Shown piece after piece: positions 2,379 through 23,071 of a stretch of 38,438 bases of DNA. This stretch comes from a virus (taxonomy: Duplodnaviria > Heunggongvirae > Uroviricota > Caudoviricetes). The position numbers were made by a program, and so were the translations under genes. The DNA is taken from positions 1 through 38,438 of the IMG/VR virus record IMGVR_UViG_2534682287_000008; one strand, 5' to 3'. The notes below the pieces were generated by a model. The model was not told the origin of the DNA, searched no databases, and was given only the letters and a program-made list of their open reading frames with translations. The stretch's first letter is position 1. Each line of letters opens with the position of its first letter.

Positions 2379-4517
2379 TTAAAATGCCATGGGGAAGTTT
2401 GCTGTTAACGGTATAATAGAATATTCTATAGATGTCGGTGGATTTCCTGATGAATAATAATTACCCCTTGCCTGCAAAACAATTAGCCCACTAGAACCTG
2501 TATAACCAGCTCTAAATGATATTTGTTTTAAATTGTTGTCAGTTGTGTTTGGGTCTATTCTTTCGTCTATTGCTGGCTTTAGATCTTGCGCATCGTGAGC
2601 TCCAGAAGAGACAACAAATGTCTGATAGTTATTTTTAATCCCACCATTAACTTTTACCATTAAGAGATAAAGACATCTGTCCGAAGCGTATCCATTATTT
2701 ATCGCGTAATCCAATTCAATTCTTATTATACTCCCATCTTGTTGAGCTGGTATTTCCTTTCTTAAAAGATATGGGCCACGAACAGAGTTATCGTAAGAAC
2801 TTCCAATATAATTACTTCCACCAACGAATGCGGAATTCATTCTCCATATATCCTCAGCAGAAAATAGACCAGAGCTTATATAATTACCACTCCAGACATT
2901 TCTATTTCTTTCAGGTCTTGCATCTATCACCATACCATTACCACCAAAAAGACAATTTCCATTAAAAACGCTCCCAGCGAAATCAGTAGGATTGATGCAT
3001 TGCACTCTAACAGATTTGTCAACTTCACCTGTAATAATTTGAATTATGTTGTTGGATACGTTATTACCAGCACACCAATCACCACCAAATCCATTGTTAT
3101 TATTATCTAATTTTTGCCCTGAAATTCCGTTAAATGTACGTTGCTCTGAGGGGTTATCAGATCCAACATAATAAATAACATTGTTACATACATTTACCAG
3201 TGATGTTCTTAACCATATTCCAAAATCATTAAGTGGGTTTTTTTCAAAATGAAAAACGTTATTACTTATAGATGATCTTCCTCCAAGACCAACTCGTTCA
3301 CCGCCACTTATTAATAACGTCATGGCTTTTACAGAAACATTCCACATTGTGTTATTATCAATAACACATTCAAGACCTCCGGTGAACGTATCAATTTCAC
3401 ATGATGATTCTTCATTCCTATTTATGAACCTATTTCCTGTTGTTTCCCCTCCTACTGTTGTGCTTCCTATTTTATATATATCTGTATTATAACCTGATTG
3501 CATAAACACATCGAATGTATTTCCTGTTACATGGAACATTGATTTTCTTGGTGTTCCCAAATCTACAGAATCAAGCGTATCACCAAGTATTGTTAAATAT
3601 GGGAATATGCTTTCTCCTGGCTGCATATCTGAATTTGATATATATAAATCTGTATTATCATCAGTCGTACAATAGTTATTTTTAACTGAAATATGTACGC
3701 TGGTTGGGTCCTGACAGTTAACCATGATGTAGCCAACACCGCAGTTAAAGCATTGCATATCTTTTATCACCACGCGCGTTGGTAAATTCGCCAGCCCATC
3801 AGGGTAATCATTGAAAATTACCTGAGGACGCTGGGTGTGGTATGCATTTGCGGTGAACTTACCGCCGATAATCTCTACTGATTTTGCGCCAAGCGGATGG
3901 AAAATATAATCAATGCCATTGAAGGTAAATTCTCCAGTAGAAGCATCGATAATGATGTCTCCTGGGATGGTGACGGGGGCTGTTACATCGTACACACCTG
4001 ATGCTACAACTCTCGTTTTGTTTGCAACCGCATAATTTACAGCTGCCTGTAATTTTTCTGACGCATTACTTCCGGGGAATACCTCGGGGACAACCCATTT
4101 GATGGCATCCTGTACCGTGCCATATGGCATAATCCCAACAAGACCAGCGCCGTCTTGATTAGAAAGCCTAATCTCAAATTGATCAGGGGCGTACTTCAGC
4201 ACATTTGGGAATTTGAACTGCTGTGCACCATACGCATCATAAACAGCCATAGAATGGCCTTGCTCAGTTACGAATTTGGCAATCTGTCCGTTATATACCG
4301 GATATCCAGCAGCATTAATGATGATTGGTTGCGAAACAGGAACGTGAGAGCCGTCTTCGTTCTCCACATAAACCTGAATCTGGTTTTCTGGATTTACCGG
4401 ATCAGTGTCAATTTTACCGATATAAATTTTACCATTGGCTACGGCTTTAAAAGAACGAGCCATAGTGAAGAGTTGCGAAGGCATGCTTACCACAACATTT
4501 GCGGTGATATCTGACAT
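2379..4517 (-). CDS. Tailspike protein: conserved P22-type N-terminal head-binding domain, divergent C-terminal receptor-binding domain
   Basis: N-terminus MSDITANVVVSMPSQLFTMARSFKAVANGKIYIGKIDTDPVNPENQ matches P22-family tailspike head-binding domain; ATG at 4515-4517 with GGAG 8 nt upstream; ORF track's longer start is probably upstream extension. Confidence 0.85.
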   Translation of the reverse strand: MSDITANVVVSMPSQLFTMARSFKAVANGKIYIGKIDTDPVNPENQIQVYVENEDGSHVPVSQPIIINAAGYPVYNGQIAKFVTEQGHSMAVYDAYGAQQFKFPNVLKYAPDQFEIRLSNQDGAGLVGIMPYGTVQDAIKWVVPEVFPGSNASEKLQAAVNYAVANKTRVVASGVYDVTAPVTIPGDIIIDASTGEFTFNGIDYIFHPLGAKSVEIIGGKFTANAYHTQRPQVIFNDYPDGLANLPTRVVIKDMQCFNCGVGYIMVNCQDPTSVHISVKNNYCTTDDNTDLYISNSDMQPGESIFPYLTILGDTLDSVDLGTPRKSMFHVTGNTFDVFMQSGYNTDIYKIGSTTVGGETTGNRFINRNEESSCEIDTFTGGLECVIDNNTMWNVSVKAMTLLISGGERVGLGGRSSISNNVFHFEKNPLNDFGIWLRTSLVNVCNNVIYYVGSDNPSEQRTFNGISGQKLDNNNNGFGGDWCAGNNVSNNIIQIITGEVDKSVRVQCINPTDFAGSVFNGNCLFGGNGMVIDARPERNRNVWSGNYISSGLFSAEDIWRMNSAFVGGSNYIGSSYDNSVRGPYLLRKEIPAQQDGSIIRIELDYAINNGYASDRCLYLLMVKVNGGIKNNYQTFVVSSGAHDAQDLKPAIDERIDPNTTDNNLKQISFRAGYTGSSGLIVLQARGNYYSSGNPPTSIEYSIIPLTANFPMAF

Positions 4518-16803: not shown

Positions 16804-18216
16804 TTACCAACCGGAGGATGAGGGAACGTATATTTCAGTTTCTTCACGGTCCAATGCCGGGCAATGCATACACATCATCAGCGCATCAGCCAGGTTAGGA
16901 GATGGAATACCGAGCTTCTGCTTCATTTCGACCTTAGTCATTAGCTCCAGCTTCCCGTTGTTATTGAATTTGCGCTGAATCTGCGTCAGTTCTGCAAACA
17001 GCTTCTCCAGCATATTCTCGCCTATTGCTTCTTTGTCGAAACTCAGCATGTCGTCGGGGTCTGCATACTCACCGTAGACAACCGCCCGATATGTCAGATA
17101 CAGCCTGTCAGCCAGCGCGTAATAGAATTGCGCTCGCTTATTGCGGAATACATCACCAATAGTGCGAACGTTGTCGCCCTGTACGACTTCATCAGCCCAT
17201 GCTCCGGCTTGATACGGTGCATCTTCATTGAATGGCGATTCGCTGCCCTTGAACATCGTGGCGGTGATTTTCTTGCCGGAGAACGCTTCCGTTGTCTGTC
17301 TGCGTAGCCCGGCACCAACACCATCACCATCCCACAGGTAATGGTCAGCGCCGTCTTCAATCGCCAGCGAAGTAGCCCAGTCAGCGCCCTCGTTGATGTC
17401 CATCAGCAGACCTTCGGCAATGCGATTAACTACCGAACCGTGACGCGATGCATAACCTTTAGCATCTGGCCCTGTATCTGACGGGTCATGCGCAGAAACA
17501 ACAGCGCCTTTCGCTTTCCATCCGAGTTTCTTGTGCGCATCGGTTGCGGCTTCAAGCCATTCACGTTTGATGATTGCCATATCACTTGCGCTTACTGGCT
17601 CACCAAGCCAGATGTGACGATACAGTGTCGGATTTCTGCGTTTACACTCTTCCATCTCCAGACGGAGAACTTCAGGAAAGTGCGGGTTGTCGGTGTAGTT
17701 CACCGTCAGCAGACAAATATCATCGGGAGGATTTACGACGAATCGCTGATAGGTATCGTCGAGTATGTTTTTCGGGTTAAAGCTCACCCATATTTCGGAA
17801 AACGGCTTGCGGATGGTTGGTATCAGGATATCCCATGATTCCTTCGTTACCGCTTCCGCTTCTTCCACCCAGCAGATATCAATGCCTTCGAGCGATTTAA
17901 TCTTCGTCGGGTTGTTTTTTATGCCGTAGAACATGAATTCAGCATTCGTTCCGAGATGACGGATCATTGAACGCTGAATTTCAAACTCAGCCGAATACCC
18001 TTCACGCTCGATGGTATCTTCAAGCAACCGGATTACCGAATCGCTGATACTGTTTTGCAGTTCACGAGCGCAGAGAATACGCACTGGCTGACGACGCGCC
18101 GCTTCAACAAGCAGCCTCGCAATTGCCCATGATTTGCCGCTACCTCGACCGCCTTTGGCGACTTTGTAGCGATGCGCCTCAATGAACGGTTCAAAGATAG
18201 GATTAATCGAGGTCAT
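16804..18216 (-). CDS. Terminase large subunit
   Basis: 470 aa; Walker A GGRGSGKS; start overlaps TerS stop (ATGA). Confidence 0.9.
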   Translation of the reverse strand: MTSINPIFEPFIEAHRYKVAKGGRGSGKSWAIARLLVEAARRQPVRILCARELQNSISDSVIRLLEDTIEREGYSAEFEIQRSMIRHLGTNAEFMFYGIKNNPTKIKSLEGIDICWVEEAEAVTKESWDILIPTIRKPFSEIWVSFNPKNILDDTYQRFVVNPPDDICLLTVNYTDNPHFPEVLRLEMEECKRRNPTLYRHIWLGEPVSASDMAIIKREWLEAATDAHKKLGWKAKGAVVSAHDPSDTGPDAKGYASRHGSVVNRIAEGLLMDINEGADWATSLAIEDGADHYLWDGDGVGAGLRRQTTEAFSGKKITATMFKGSESPFNEDAPYQAGAWADEVVQGDNVRTIGDVFRNKRAQFYYALADRLYLTYRAVVYGEYADPDDMLSFDKEAIGENMLEKLFAELTQIQRKFNNNGKLELMTKVEMKQKLGIPSPNLADALMMCMHCPALDREETEIYVPSSSGW

Positions 18217-18740
18217 TTTCCGAATAGAGTGCTCATCGGTGATGTTTCAATCTGTATTGCGCCGCCGTCTTTACCGGTTAGCTCGTGAGAAGCTTGTTCT
18301 TTAAATGCCTGAACGGAAACATGCTTACCAAGAAGTTCGAGGTTTTTGACCTTATCAGGCCATTTGATTTTCTTCAGAAGTGCGGCACTATCTGCGGATA
18401 CCATCTCCACGACATCCATTCCTGATAGCGTTGTGCGCCATACCTTAGGCCAGTCTTTAATGGGCTTTAACTCACCGTTTTGCAGGAGAATGTCGAGCAC
18501 ATCCATCTGGTCGATTTCAATAAGGCGGTTAAGTACATATTCTGCATTAATACCAACAAGATCATTGCGTTGCGCTTTCAGTTCGGAGATTCTTAACTTG
18601 ATGTCAGGTTTTGACAGGTTTTCGGATGCGGTACGGTTAGCTGTCTTTGCGCTGTACCCCGCCCGAATAGCCGCTTGCGTGGCGTTTAAATCGATGAGGT
18701 ACTCGCGACAGAACATTTCTTGCTTGTCAGTGAGTGCCAT
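18213..18740 (-). CDS. Terminase small subunit
   Basis: 175 aa; N-terminus MALTDKQEMFCREYLIDLNATQAAIRAGYS typical of small terminase family; immediately upstream of TerL. Confidence 0.8.
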   Translation of the reverse strand: MALTDKQEMFCREYLIDLNATQAAIRAGYSAKTANRTASENLSKPDIKLRISELKAQRNDLVGINAEYVLNRLIEIDQMDVLDILLQNGELKPIKDWPKVWRTTLSGMDVVEMVSADSAALLKKIKWPDKVKNLELLGKHVSVQAFKEQASHELTGKDGGAIQIETSPMSTLFGK

Positions 18741-18766: not shown

Positions 18767-18979
18767 ATGAGCAAATCTTCGACTGTAAGAAAAGCGTTAT
18801 TTAAAATTGGCGATTCCGTATATTTGAAATCAGGCGGTCCTGAGATGTCTGTATACGAAATCCACGAATTCGGAGGTTCTTTTACTGGAACATACACATG
18901 CCAATGGTTTGCAGGGAAAAAACTTGAGAAAGGACACTTTGCTGAAGAGTCTTTAACGGACACAAACCCAAAGCCATAA
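18767..18979 (+). CDS. Small protein, DUF2158 (YodC)-like
   Basis: 70 aa; motif GDSVYLKSGGPEMSV; antisense to late operon. Confidence 0.5.
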   Translation: MSKSSTVRKALFKIGDSVYLKSGGPEMSVYEIHEFGGSFTGTYTCQWFAGKKLEKGHFAEESLTDTNPKP

Positions 18980-19023: not shown

Positions 19024-19263
19024 ATGATGTCCGCATTAGCAACTGACAGATGCCTTTATCAGCAAGATGTTGTCGATTACCTGATAAAGACAGGTAATGA
19101 GCAGCACCTGAAAGAAAATGCAGATGGCAACCAAGTACTTTCAACCAAAGTTATAAATGCATTTAGAGTTGATAGTGGCGATGATGTCGTTTGGGTTAAG
19201 CCAGATAAGTACTGGCGTTTCCGTGTGCCTGAAGACGAAAACGGTCGTGAAGCCCGCGGTTAA
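19024..19263 (+). CDS. Hypothetical protein
   Basis: 79 aa ORF directly downstream of the DUF2158-like gene. Confidence 0.4.
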   Translation: MMSALATDRCLYQQDVVDYLIKTGNEQHLKENADGNQVLSTKVINAFRVDSGDDVVWVKPDKYWRFRVPEDENGREARG

Positions 19264-19326
19264 ACTTATCCACGATAAAAGGCAGCATGCTTAGTGCTGC
19301 CATATTCATCTCACTTAATTGTCATT

Positions 19327-19506
19327 TCAGGTTGAGAACTCTTTTGCACCTTCAATCAATGACTGCTTCAGCAATTCGAGTGTGCCAATCGCCTCACACA
19401 AACTGATTTCACCATCGTAATCATGAATAACGCTTTCAAGCCGCTCGTATAGCTCTTGAGTAATTGGGAATTTCTTCTCCTTACCCAAATTGATTACGCG
19501 GCTCAC
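19327..19506 (-). CDS. Hypothetical small protein, GTG start
   Basis: 59 aa read by hand; GGAG 7 nt upstream of GTG; frame opens immediately after stop of upstream 80-aa gene; absent from ORF track. Confidence 0.3.
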   Translation of the reverse strand: MSRVINLGKEKKFPITQELYERLESVIHDYDGEISLCEAIGTLELLKQSLIEGAKEFST

Positions 19507-19507
19507 A

Positions 19508-19750
19508 TCATGCTCCGGTGGTGAACAGGTCTAACGCTTCCTTCGATTTACGCACCGCTTCGATTGTGCGGGTCGTGATATCTGAATTAGCGCCGCCTGA
19601 CTGGAAGTGAATTTTGAATAGCTCAAGCTTCAGTTCGTCAGTGCCAATGAATTGAAATGCTTCCTCTGCGGCTGCGTTCTGGTTCATGACCAGTTTGTAA
19701 ATCTCTAACTGGAATTTCTGTTCTTCAGTCATGGGGATAATCTCTGCCAT
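19508..19750 (-). CDS. Hypothetical protein, possibly P22 orf80-like
   Basis: 80 aa from ATG at 19748-19750 (MAEIIPMTEEQ) with GGAG 6 nt upstream; ORF track start is an upstream TTG. Confidence 0.45.
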   Translation of the reverse strand: MAEIIPMTEEQKFQLEIYKLVMNQNAAAEEAFQFIGTDELKLELFKIHFQSGGANSDITTRTIEAVRKSKEALDLFTTGA

Positions 19751-19818
19751 TGTTGGCTCCGGTTGTGGTGATGATGTCAAGCAAGCCCATCTTGACTATC
19801 TCAACTAGTCGATTCATG

Positions 19819-20019
19819 ACATATGTCACATTTATACCAACCAGATCATTGCGTTGAGTTTACAACTCAATAATTCTTGGTTGGACGTCAAGTTTTGACG
19901 GTTTTTCGGGTGGCAGTTGATAGCAATCTTAGAACTGCCCCCGAATAGCCGCTTGTGTGGCGTTTAAATCGATGAGGTACTCGCGACCGAACGTTTCTTA
20001 TTTTTCGGTAAGTGCCATT
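19819..20019 (-). pseudogene. Degenerate duplicate of the terS 5' end (start codon plus about 200 bp), premature stop at codon 7
   Basis: Near-identical blocks to 18545-18740, e.g. CGCGAGTACCTCATCGATTTAAACGCCAC and GCGGCTATTCGGG; reads MALTEK-stop. Confidence 0.65.
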
Positions 20020-20766
20020 GCTTATTCTCTTTATTTAGTTAAACTATCTCCCTACGAGCCCATAGGGAGTGCCGGAAGCGATATCGTTCAAGTGGTGAAA
20101 AACATTACAGCAGTAGGACTTTTGTTTTATCCACTGATACCAAAAGCAGTAAAAGTTGTTAGCGATATAGCCAAAAGCAAGGGGGTTGCCATGAGGAAAT
20201 ATTCAGAAAAATTCATGAATACGGTAAAACGCTTAACCTCGAATACCGAAGAACTCACCATGGTCGATGTCGCTCTCTTCTACCTCGGGGGCTGGGTTAC
20301 GTTCCCACTCCCTATGGGCTCAAATCCATCCTAAACTCAATATAACCAATTCGTTTCTGCCTCACATATTGTGCTTTTACTCATTGTCGAGACCACTCAT
20401 TGAATGGCCTCTGCAATAACCGATGTCTTTCCATCAGTCCGCCACCACAAAGAATCTTTTTTGCCATAAGGCTGGAGGTTCATCTTTCAGTGGCTGCCAG
20501 TGTTATTTCCCCACTTACTGGCTTGGGTTGTTTCGCGGTACTGCCGTAACTGGTTGCCCAGAATAAATTCCGGTTTCATTATCAAGCCCACCCGTAGATA
20601 GGCTTTGTAATGAACTGGCTCTTATCTCAACGCAGCCCCTTACCGCGCGCCAGATGCTCAACTTCAAGCATCAGCAATGAGATGTTTAATCTGGATTCAC
20701 TCCAGAAGTGATCACCACCCTGTCTACAGAGCCAGATGTGAAGGATGATGAGTAAAATTATCGCTA

Positions 20767-21234
20767 TCATCGAAGGCATTGCGTCCTGATGTATTCCTGA
20801 AGAGTTCTCAGTGCTGTTTGGTCGCGGATAATTCCGTCCCGGACACCGAGAACGTTTCGTCCAGCAACTGGAGAGAGTTCGACGGTGGCATCATTGCCCA
20901 TGCCGGAGGCGCCGGAGGTTTCGGCTGAGGATGGCACAGGGCATTTTCCTTTGACGAGCACCCTGCCACCATTATCAAGCTTGCGACGAAGAGCATCATT
21001 TTCAGCTTTCGCATCAGCTAACTCCTTCGTGTATTTAGCATCGAGTACATCAGCAGCACGCTGGCGTTGCTGCATGTCAGTAATGGTGGCGGTCGCCTGC
21101 TTCAGCTCACTGACTTTTTTATCACGCTGTTCTTTATAGGCGATGGCGTTATCACGGTAATGATTAACAGCCCATGACAGGCAGACGATGATGCAGATAA
21201 CCAGAGCGGAGATAATCGCGGTTACTCTGCTCAT
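20767..21234 (-). CDS. Rz: Spanin inner-membrane subunit Rz
   Basis: 155 aa; N-terminal transmembrane segment then coiled coil; contains embedded Rz1 frame. Confidence 0.9.
20808..21014 (-). CDS. Rz1: Spanin outer-membrane lipoprotein Rz1 (embedded in Rz)
   Basis: MRKLKMML... lipobox LIMVAGC, proline-rich; in +1 frame inside Rz. Confidence 0.85.
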
Positions 21235-22447: not shown

Positions 22448-23071
22448 CTAACGTGTGACCGCATTCAAAATGTTGTCTGCGATTGACTCTTCTTTGTGGC
22501 ATTGCACCACCAGAGCGTCATACAGCGGCTTAACAGTGCGTGACCAGGTGGGTTGAGTAAGGTTTGGGATTAGCATCGTTACAGCGCGATATGCGGCGCT
22601 TGCTGGCATTCTTGAATAGCCGACACCTTTGCATCTTCCGCACTCTTTCTCAACAACTCTCCCCCACTGCTCCGTTTTGGCTATATCAACCGCCCGACCT
22701 GTACCGTGGCAATCTCTGCATCTTGCGCCCGGCGTCGCGGCACTACGGCAATAATCCGCATAAGCGAATGTTGCGAGCACTTGCAGTACCTTTGCCTTAG
22801 TATTTCCTTCAAGCTTTGCCACACCACGGTATTTCCCCGATACCTTGTGTGCAAATTGCATCAGATAGTTGATAGCCTTTTGTTTGTCGTTCTGGCTGAG
22901 TTCGTGCTTACCGCAGAATGCAGCCATACCGAATCCGGCTTGTGATTGCGCCATCCCCATAGCAGCCATCACATCAGTACCGGAAAGAGAGTCAGAAGCC
23001 GTGGCCCGTGGTGAGTCGCTCATCATCGGGCTTTTTGGCGAGTGAAATTTAGCTACGCTTTCGAGTCTCAT
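22448..23071 (-). CDS. Q: Late antiterminator Q (lambda-type)
   Basis: 207 aa, MRLESVAKFHSPKSPMMSDSPRATASDSLSGTDVMAAMGMAQSQ matches lambda Q. Confidence 0.9.
   Translation of the reverse strand: MRLESVAKFHSPKSPMMSDSPRATASDSLSGTDVMAAMGMAQSQAGFGMAAFCGKHELSQNDKQKAINYLMQFAHKVSGKYRGVAKLEGNTKAKVLQVLATFAYADYCRSAATPGARCRDCHGTGRAVDIAKTEQWGRVVEKECGRCKGVGYSRMPASAAYRAVTMLIPNLTQPTWSRTVKPLYDALVVQCHKEESIADNILNAVTR

Follow-up and report, generated by a model that had tools for sequence, protein, structure and literature searches.

Identity of the two genes

What do two tightly coupled small genes contribute to a P22-like phage when they lie between its lysis and packaging genes, and does either need the other? 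The question is raised by positions 19327 to 19750 of a 38,438-nucleotide (nt) viral stretch (Caudoviricetes; IMG/VR record IMGVR_UViG_2534682287_000008, positions 1 to 38,438), which as a whole is called the window here and is overall an HK620-like, P22-like phage. On its minus strand an 80-residue protein and, one base after the stop codon, a 59-residue protein are encoded. We consider it rather probable that they are late-region accessory genes of P22-like phages, orf80 (DUF2560 family) and orf59c, acting by the steps proposed below. Neither protein appears to be a toxin, and neither is an obligate partner of the other. The elements of the pair are as follows (aa, amino acids; ORF, open reading frame).

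19508..19750, minus strand: homologue of orf80 (DUF2560 family; orf80 of P22, hkbM of HK620), 80 aa, recognised by its ORF, PF10834, phrog_571, the nucleotide match to P22 and the dN/dS ratio (nonsynonymous to synonymous substitution rates)
19327..19506, minus strand: homologue of orf59c (orf59c of P22, hkbN of HK620), 59 aa, GTG start, predicted ribbon-helix-helix-like fold
19757..19760, minus strand: GGAG ribosome-binding site of orf80, six nt 5' of the ATG, read from the sequence
19504..19516, minus strand: junction GGAGCATGATGTG, with the ribosome-binding site of orf59c inside orf80, then TGA, one base and GTG, read from the sequence

The region 19250..19850 matched 107 phage records by megablast. 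The match to P22 has about 95% nucleotide identity, and orf80, orf59c and the start of gene 3 are annotated beneath it; the HK620 counterparts are hkbM for orf80 and hkbN for orf59c. The earlier note on this DNA, made from its letters and referred to here as the sequence-only reading, had tentatively linked the 80-residue product to a P22 orf80 upstream of gene 3, and this identity was correct. The profile search proposed there placed both peptides. Orf80 covers positions 1-72 of 72 of Pfam DUF2560 (PF10834) with an E-value of 1.1e-43 and 147.7 bits (cut-off 25), and it matches phrog_571 (E 2.3e-41). Orf59c covers positions 1-59 of 59 of phrog_3546 (E 1.3e-42) and matched no Pfam family. Both phrog families carry no functional annotation. 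Compared with orf80 and orf59c of P22 (NC_002371 41014-41256 and 41258-41437) and with hkbM and hkbN, the genes of the window agree in length, in the one-nt gap and in their place after the lysis genes on the late strand. The difference lies downstream: in P22 and HK620 terS follows directly, whereas in the window the pair is followed by the DUF6953/YodC cassette, on the opposite strand, and by a terS of another type (Terminase_2). The pair is therefore already catalogued, its annotation in P22 and HK620 being more than twenty years old, and the observation itself is correct.

When the sequence was re-read, the coordinates and signals given earlier were found to be exact, with the orf80 start ATG at 19750..19748, its stop TGA at 19510..19508, the orf59c start GTG at 19506..19504 and its stop TGA at 19329..19327, all on the minus strand. 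The GGAG of orf59c (19516..19513) lies within the final codons of orf80, six nt 5' of the GTG, and a single T (19507) separates the two genes in the arrangement TGA-T-GTG. The program-made ORF list takes the orf80 frame up to a TTG at 19780 (90 aa). The true start is likely the ATG at 19750, because homologues have MAEI as their first residues and the DNA is conserved from no further than about 15 nt 5' of that ATG.

Substitution patterns were evaluated as pooled Nei-Gojobori dN/dS over alleles extracted from the fetched loci. In the annotated frames the ratio is 0.12 for orf80 (130 distinct alleles) and 0.17 for orf59c (65 distinct alleles), compared with 0.77 to 2.7 in two alternative frames. 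The mean column identity of the protein alignments is 76% for orf80 and 81% for orf59c. The conservation of the 59-residue frame in homologous phages, which had been marked for checking, holds where the gene is present, and the frame is kept down to 66-75% identity in Salmonella and Hafnia. Judged by this sequence comparison, both are shown to be genuine protein-coding genes under purifying selection.

Distribution and the slot behind orf80

In the searches made, both families were found in Enterobacterales only. Across this order, orf80 is present in 12 of 12 locus groups with called genes, always at the lysis/packaging boundary. The loci inspected from Salmonella, Hafnia, Serratia, Shimwellia and Klebsiella aerogenes share one common order: first a lysis cassette, sometimes followed by a KilA-N/Rha-type gene; then DUF2560 with up to three small genes behind it; and last terS, terL and a P22-type portal. 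The terS gene is of the P22 gp3, Sf6/HK620, Terminase_2 or 146-aa type in different loci, and terL varies too. DUF2560 thus goes with the P22-like lysis/packaging boundary and not with one particular terminase.

Among 81 loci recovered through Orf59c, orf80 lies just upstream by tblastn in 80, and the one-nt gap is kept in 73. The dependence was also examined from the other side, in a census of 79 IMG/VR loci encoding an Orf80 identical to that of the window. Here orf59c is found in 16 loci and is absent from 63. In 24 of the 79, terS begins two nt after the orf80 stop; in 11, orf59c has been removed by a clean 168-bp deletion (junction GGAGCATGATG/CTCAACCTGA) that keeps the last 10 nt of the gene; about 21 hold a short ORF only; and a few hold other cargo, namely a 129-aa HExxH protein, a 162-aa protein and a 134-aa protein. 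The IMG/VR totals follow the same direction, with 434 matches to Orf80 and 158 to Orf59c, and orf59c occurs at one locus in 185,579 species-representative genomes. As far as these locus comparisons go, the slot behind orf80 is a cargo hotspot, of which orf59c is one optional, interchangeable occupant.

The 168-bp deletion, equivalent to 19337-19504 of the window, was seen in the loci listed as L018, L020 and L047 and in eight others. Other cargo stands between DUF2560 and terS in loci L005, L011, L012, L054, L183 and L184. The kinds observed in the slot are a 46-72-aa lysine-rich protein (phrog_2423) followed by a 110-156-aa protein, a 128-aa HExxH protein (phrog_1365), and a 134-aa protein whose C-terminus resembles, by sequence, a tail-fibre repeat; the cargo genes of the phrog_2423, phrog_1365 and 134-aa kinds carry no assigned function. 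In the Serratia prophage locus L011, an Acb2/Tad1-hairpin Pfam match (3371-3652) lies between the lysis genes and DUF2560. Since Acb2/Tad1 is a counter-defence family, putative anti-defence cargo can evidently also be carried immediately 5' of orf80.

A classical moron brings a promoter and a terminator of its own and is expressed while the phage is a prophage. The sequence-only reading had assigned the pair to a moron slot. In a loose sense this stands, the site being a cargo hotspot, but a promoter-like site of the pair's own was not found: the consensus scan, which is weak evidence, gave none on the minus strand from 19750 to 20900. With morons and cargo hotspots (for example pid of P22, in the same region) the pair shares the character of non-essential, patchy genes between conserved late modules. 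It differs from a classical moron in having no promoter-like site 5' of orf80 and in being co-oriented with, and embedded in, the late operon; as for a terminator, the same scan placed a terminator-like hairpin after orf59c in this window only.

Predicted folds and the wider family of Orf59c

The model of Orf59c consists of strand, strand, helix and helix, with a pLDDT (predicted local distance difference test) of 75.6 and a pTM (predicted template-modelling score) of 0.47. Its strand-helix-helix topology superposes, in the model, on solved members of the ribbon-helix-helix class, and its best fold matches include antitoxin DNA-binding domains (Rv0298, TacA, MazE6/7, ParD and CopA). From this model a ribbon-helix-helix-like fold of Orf59c is probable, and DNA binding is conceivable at somewhat less than an even chance. 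With the ribbon-helix-helix (Arc/MetJ/CopG) superfamily, which includes Arc and Mnt of P22, the plasmid proteins TraM and TraY and type II antitoxin domains, no sequence relationship was detectable. Orf59c differs from these members in being acidic, in an additional strand at the N-terminus and in its long second helix, which bears a conserved G-x-L-E-L-x-K motif. No PADLOC family was linked to it. Orf80 was modelled as four helices with a pLDDT of 86.9.

When the Orf59c profile was run against 1.84 billion representatives, 186 clusters were returned at E up to 0.001. The members are mostly of 50-65 aa and match end to end, and none of the 45 checked matches Pfam. Four distant relatives have readable contigs, and all four stand in arrays of small ORFs; two of these arrays adjoin recombination (Rad52-like, Gp157, SSB) or replication (lambda P, HTH_36) genes, and the four contigs have no constant neighbour and no terminase nearby. 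Because the distant relatives are placed in this way, Orf59c looks like a portable small phage protein that was captured into the P22 late slot, and it does not look packaging-specific. What is new here is threefold: Orf59c is predicted to have a ribbon-helix-helix-like fold, its family proves to be broad, and the orf80 boundary is described together with its cargo slot.

Proposed role of the pair

On the minus strand of the window, the pair stands downstream of a Q-type antiterminator (Antiterm, 22448..23071), endolysin and Rz, and upstream of terS, a Terminase_3 terL and a P22-type portal. The co-orientation with the late operon that had been noted from the sequence is thereby borne out. Because no promoter-like site was found upstream of orf80, we infer that both genes would be transcribed only within the antiterminated late transcript. 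Because the final codons of orf80 contain the ribosome-binding site of orf59c and the GTG follows one base past the TGA, orf59c would then be translated by termination-reinitiation, by ribosomes that have just ended at the orf80 stop. Coupling gated by a hairpin was considered and rejected, the junction RNA having no stable structure and being no more structured than its shuffles (z +1.1); therefore coupling, if real, would act by proximity and not by the opening of a hairpin. No Rfam family reached its gathering score anywhere in the window. The conserved 5' and 3' ends of orf80 would serve both as ribosome-binding junctions and as homology patches for swapping downstream modules. Of the products, Orf59c would be a small accessory regulator, dimerising in a ribbon-helix-helix-like manner and binding either DNA or a partner protein, and Orf80 would be a four-helix bundle acting with some partner.

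It has been reported that a P22 orf25-orf80::KmR mutant still lyses and lysogenises (PMC11016777). The literature search gave no function for orf80 or orf59c, and no paper was found that mentions orf59c, hkbM or hkbN as phage genes. Two proteins with a similar label were rejected as relatives of orf80, the name being all they share: Listeria TerI-80 and ORF80 of the Stx2 phage Sp5 (2,793 aa). The packaging inhibitors of Listeria prophages (TerI/'orf80', TerI-80) resemble the present case in name and in the theme of small proteins near packaging functions. They belong to unrelated organisms and loci, where the 'orf80' label is coincidental, and they were set apart on these grounds, without a sequence comparison.

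Acidic charge is unusual in small DNA-binding proteins. This and several other observations weigh against the proposed role. Orf59c is acidic, with a net charge of about -4 counted from the sequence. Its model is moderate and of a monomer only, with the other four models scoring 61-68, and Foldseek with this model returned nothing significant. A profile of Orf59c found no Pfam match at E up to 1 and no PDB sequence match, and hhalign against CopG and Arc gave a probability below 1%. A few of the distant relatives bear the domain at the C-terminus of proteins of 110-173 aa. The fold search with Orf80 returned generic helical bundles only, which give no biochemical role. The late-only transcription and the coupling are read from the gene anatomy. 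For the conserved ends of orf80, translation signals alone, and not recombination, could be the explanation. Finally, the P22 deletions were assayed for plaque formation and lysogeny only, so that a conditional role is possible.

The proposal can be extended, tentatively and with clearly more doubt. Orf59c would be the P22 member of a large unrecognised family of about 55-60 residues (at least 186 clusters at 50% identity, with no Pfam model or solved structure), whose members would dimerise in a ribbon-helix-helix-like way and function either as portable regulators, through DNA binding or DNA mimicry, or in counter-defence. In P22-like phages it would be coupled behind DUF2560, whose ends would form a universal docking site for cargo and packaging modules.

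Taken alone, the pair carries limited weight, both genes being long annotated and dispensable in P22. The comparative evidence nevertheless largely removes the toxin-antitoxin idea discussed below. In addition, orf59c emerges as an optional cargo gene whose product belongs to a far larger family of small phage proteins and can be given a testable ribbon-helix-helix prediction.

Alternative explanations

The alternative that survives best, although we regard it as unlikely, is that both are small host-directed or anti-defence proteins with an advantage only in particular hosts, which would explain their dispensability in the laboratory together with their patchy distribution. Both proteins are small and, by a count from their sequences, acidic; they are kept by purifying selection although the phage can do without them; orf59c acts like a mobile cargo gene of a hotspot; and the wider Orf59c family lives in early-region arrays of small ORFs, a common home of such genes. 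On the other hand, no similarity to characterised inhibitors was found, the PADLOC models covering defence and not counter-defence, and a place in the late operon is atypical, since counter-defence genes usually act early.

TraY and TraM are small ribbon-helix-helix accessory proteins that aid relaxases at oriT. By analogy, the pair might be accessory DNA-packaging factors that help the terminase to recognise or process the packaging site, and its position favours this. We hold the idea to be improbable. The pair occurs with several terL families and with four or more terS types that are unrelated, each having a recognition site of its own; most of the loci with an identical Orf80 lack orf59c; P22 without orf80 yields viable phage; and distant relatives of Orf59c are found in early regions beside recombination and replication genes, not beside terminase genes.

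The sequence-only reading also found the arrangement compatible with a toxin-antitoxin-like pair. In such a module Orf59c would be a ribbon-helix-helix antitoxin that neutralises Orf80 and represses the operon, and the tight coupling of the genes and the resemblance of the Orf59c model to antitoxin DNA-binding domains speak for it. It fails, however, on toxin identity, co-occurrence, promoter and dispensability, and we give it very little credence. Orf80 has no toxin-family match in Pfam, in PADLOC or by fold. The two genes do not co-occur strictly, 63 of the 79 loci with an identical Orf80 lacking orf59c, 11 of them by clean deletion, and both P22 without orf80 and natural phages without orf59c are viable. 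The consensus scan shows no promoter-like site 5' of the pair, and the gene order is reversed relative to the usual antitoxin-first order. In the model, Orf59c has nearly no sequence beyond the fold from which a neutralising tail could be formed, and its distant relatives occur singly, in the company of unrelated small ORFs and without any neighbour that recurs. A fourth explanation, concerning the promoter upstream of orf80, is taken up with the neighbouring elements below.

The ends of orf80

In the accessory-gene explanation that we prefer, the ends of orf80 have a part of their own. Against a DUF2560 subgroup with 44% protein identity, the ribosome-binding site and start of orf80 are 90-97% identical at the DNA level and the last 30 nt are 83-90% identical, compared with 20-50% in the middle of the gene. 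The 30 nt surrounding the ribosome-binding site keep this 90-97% identity even to the divergent subgroup. These ends look like module-boundary sequence. The concept of 'linker' sequences at module boundaries comes from lambdoid mosaicism. The likeness to lambdoid linkers is that the ends of orf80 are far better conserved than its middle and that mosaic homology breakpoints fall at the ends; the difference is that the patches of orf80 coincide with ribosome-binding sites and with start and stop codons. Together with the terS relic described below, the ends would mark where P22-like phages have exchanged packaging modules and morons.

An 8-mer, ACCGGAGC, is present at both ends of orf80 (19751-19764 and 19508-19537). 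Among public DUF2560 protein records, many (for example P0065-P0078, 102-129 aa) begin with 20-50 residues too many. It seems that gene callers prolong the DUF2560 frame in the 5' direction, which in some phages takes it into the terS relic. In some cases that relic is labelled 'terminase small subunit', as in phage P6 (a 62-aa fragment). Recognising the over-extended DUF2560 N-termini and these 'terminase small subunit' fragments is useful for annotation.

Mosaic surroundings of the pair

The elements around the pair are listed below in the order of their coordinates.

18213..18740, minus strand: functional terS (Terminase_2, PF03592, E 1.1e-39), 175 aa, its stop overlapping the terL start
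18767..18979 and 19024..19263, plus strand: opposite-strand cargo, DUF2158/YodC and DUF6953 (Pfam E 4.8e-15 and 3.3e-17)
19281..19301, minus strand: terminator-like hairpin followed by TTTTAT, just 3' of orf59c at the junction with the inserted cassette, from the consensus scan
19294..19303, minus strand: relic of the start of P22 gene 3 (terS), ATGGCAGCAC, where P22 homology ends, placed by the limit of that homology
19299..19764, minus strand: conserved orf80-orf59c cassette, with sharp homology edges shared with HK620 and E. coli prophages (blastn)
19774..20018, minus strand: decayed 5' fragment of a Terminase_2-type terS directly upstream of orf80, with in-frame stops (tblastn E 4e-27)
19849..19877, plus strand: promoter-like TTGCGT-17-AATTCT, the positional equivalent of the P22 pid promoter, antisense within the terS relic and divergent from orf80

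The pair had been described as lying just upstream of terS. It does lie upstream, but not directly, the distance from orf59c to terS being 586 bp, which is occupied by DUF6953 and DUF2158/YodC on the opposite strand. The YodC/DUF6953 cassette is also annotated in E. coli NCTC9104 and in a handful of IMG/VR contigs.

By blastn the window is 95.7% identical to HK620 across 19764..19299, and NCTC9104 was likewise compared. Homology to P22 spans 20017..19291 of the window. It breaks off at about 19294, after ten nt of the gene 3 start; P22-type gp3 begins with MAAPKG. The break in P22 homology falls within the hairpin and T-tract at 19301-19281. In the consensus scan, the count of terminator-like sites across the region was not above the shuffle expectation.

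The terS relic has 75% nucleotide identity to the window's own terS, and the similarity stops at 19774, 24 nt before the orf80 ATG. The same relic is present in P22 (NC_002371 40745-40990). From these alignments the relic is best described as a recombination scar and not as the source of orf80. An origin of orf80 as an overprint of the dead terS was rejected, the similarity stopping at 19774, before the orf80 ribosome-binding site; no part of orf80 or orf59c could be aligned with terS in its 3' half or with terL at its 5' end.

The P22 pid promoter has the -10 box AATCCT and a transcription start site at NC_002371 40880 (PMC8835761). Mapped through the P22 alignment, these coordinates suggest a pid-type promoter function for the plus-strand site of the window. 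In P22, the pid promoter and about 135 of the 174 nt of the unusually long 5' untranslated region of pid lie antisense inside the terS relic, and the long pid leader may be former terS coding sequence. Terminase is mentioned in neither of the two pid papers. That Orf59c is a local regulator of this divergent antisense promoter, about 120 bp upstream of orf80, is suggested by the Ppid-like site within the relic, by the predicted DNA-binding fold encoded next door and by the regulation of pid being described as unresolved (PMC8835761), but we rejected it as highly improbable, there being no co-occurrence with the relic and its promoter (of 76 loci with an identical Orf80, the relic is in 1 and orf59c in 16, and HK620 has orf59c without the relic) and no repeated operator-like motif near the promoter.

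At the position of P22 pid, the window carries an unrelated 364-bp segment (20018-20382). Its plus strand offers an ORF at 19957-20334 (125 aa, GTG start) or one from an ATG at 20192-20335 (47 aa, with a good ribosome-binding site), and no Pfam match was found for the ORF. The segment is matched by no phage record and, among 5,426 complete E. coli genomes, by only 2. It adjoins an intact Terminase_2 terS in E. coli A11, with neither orf80 nor orf59c at that place.
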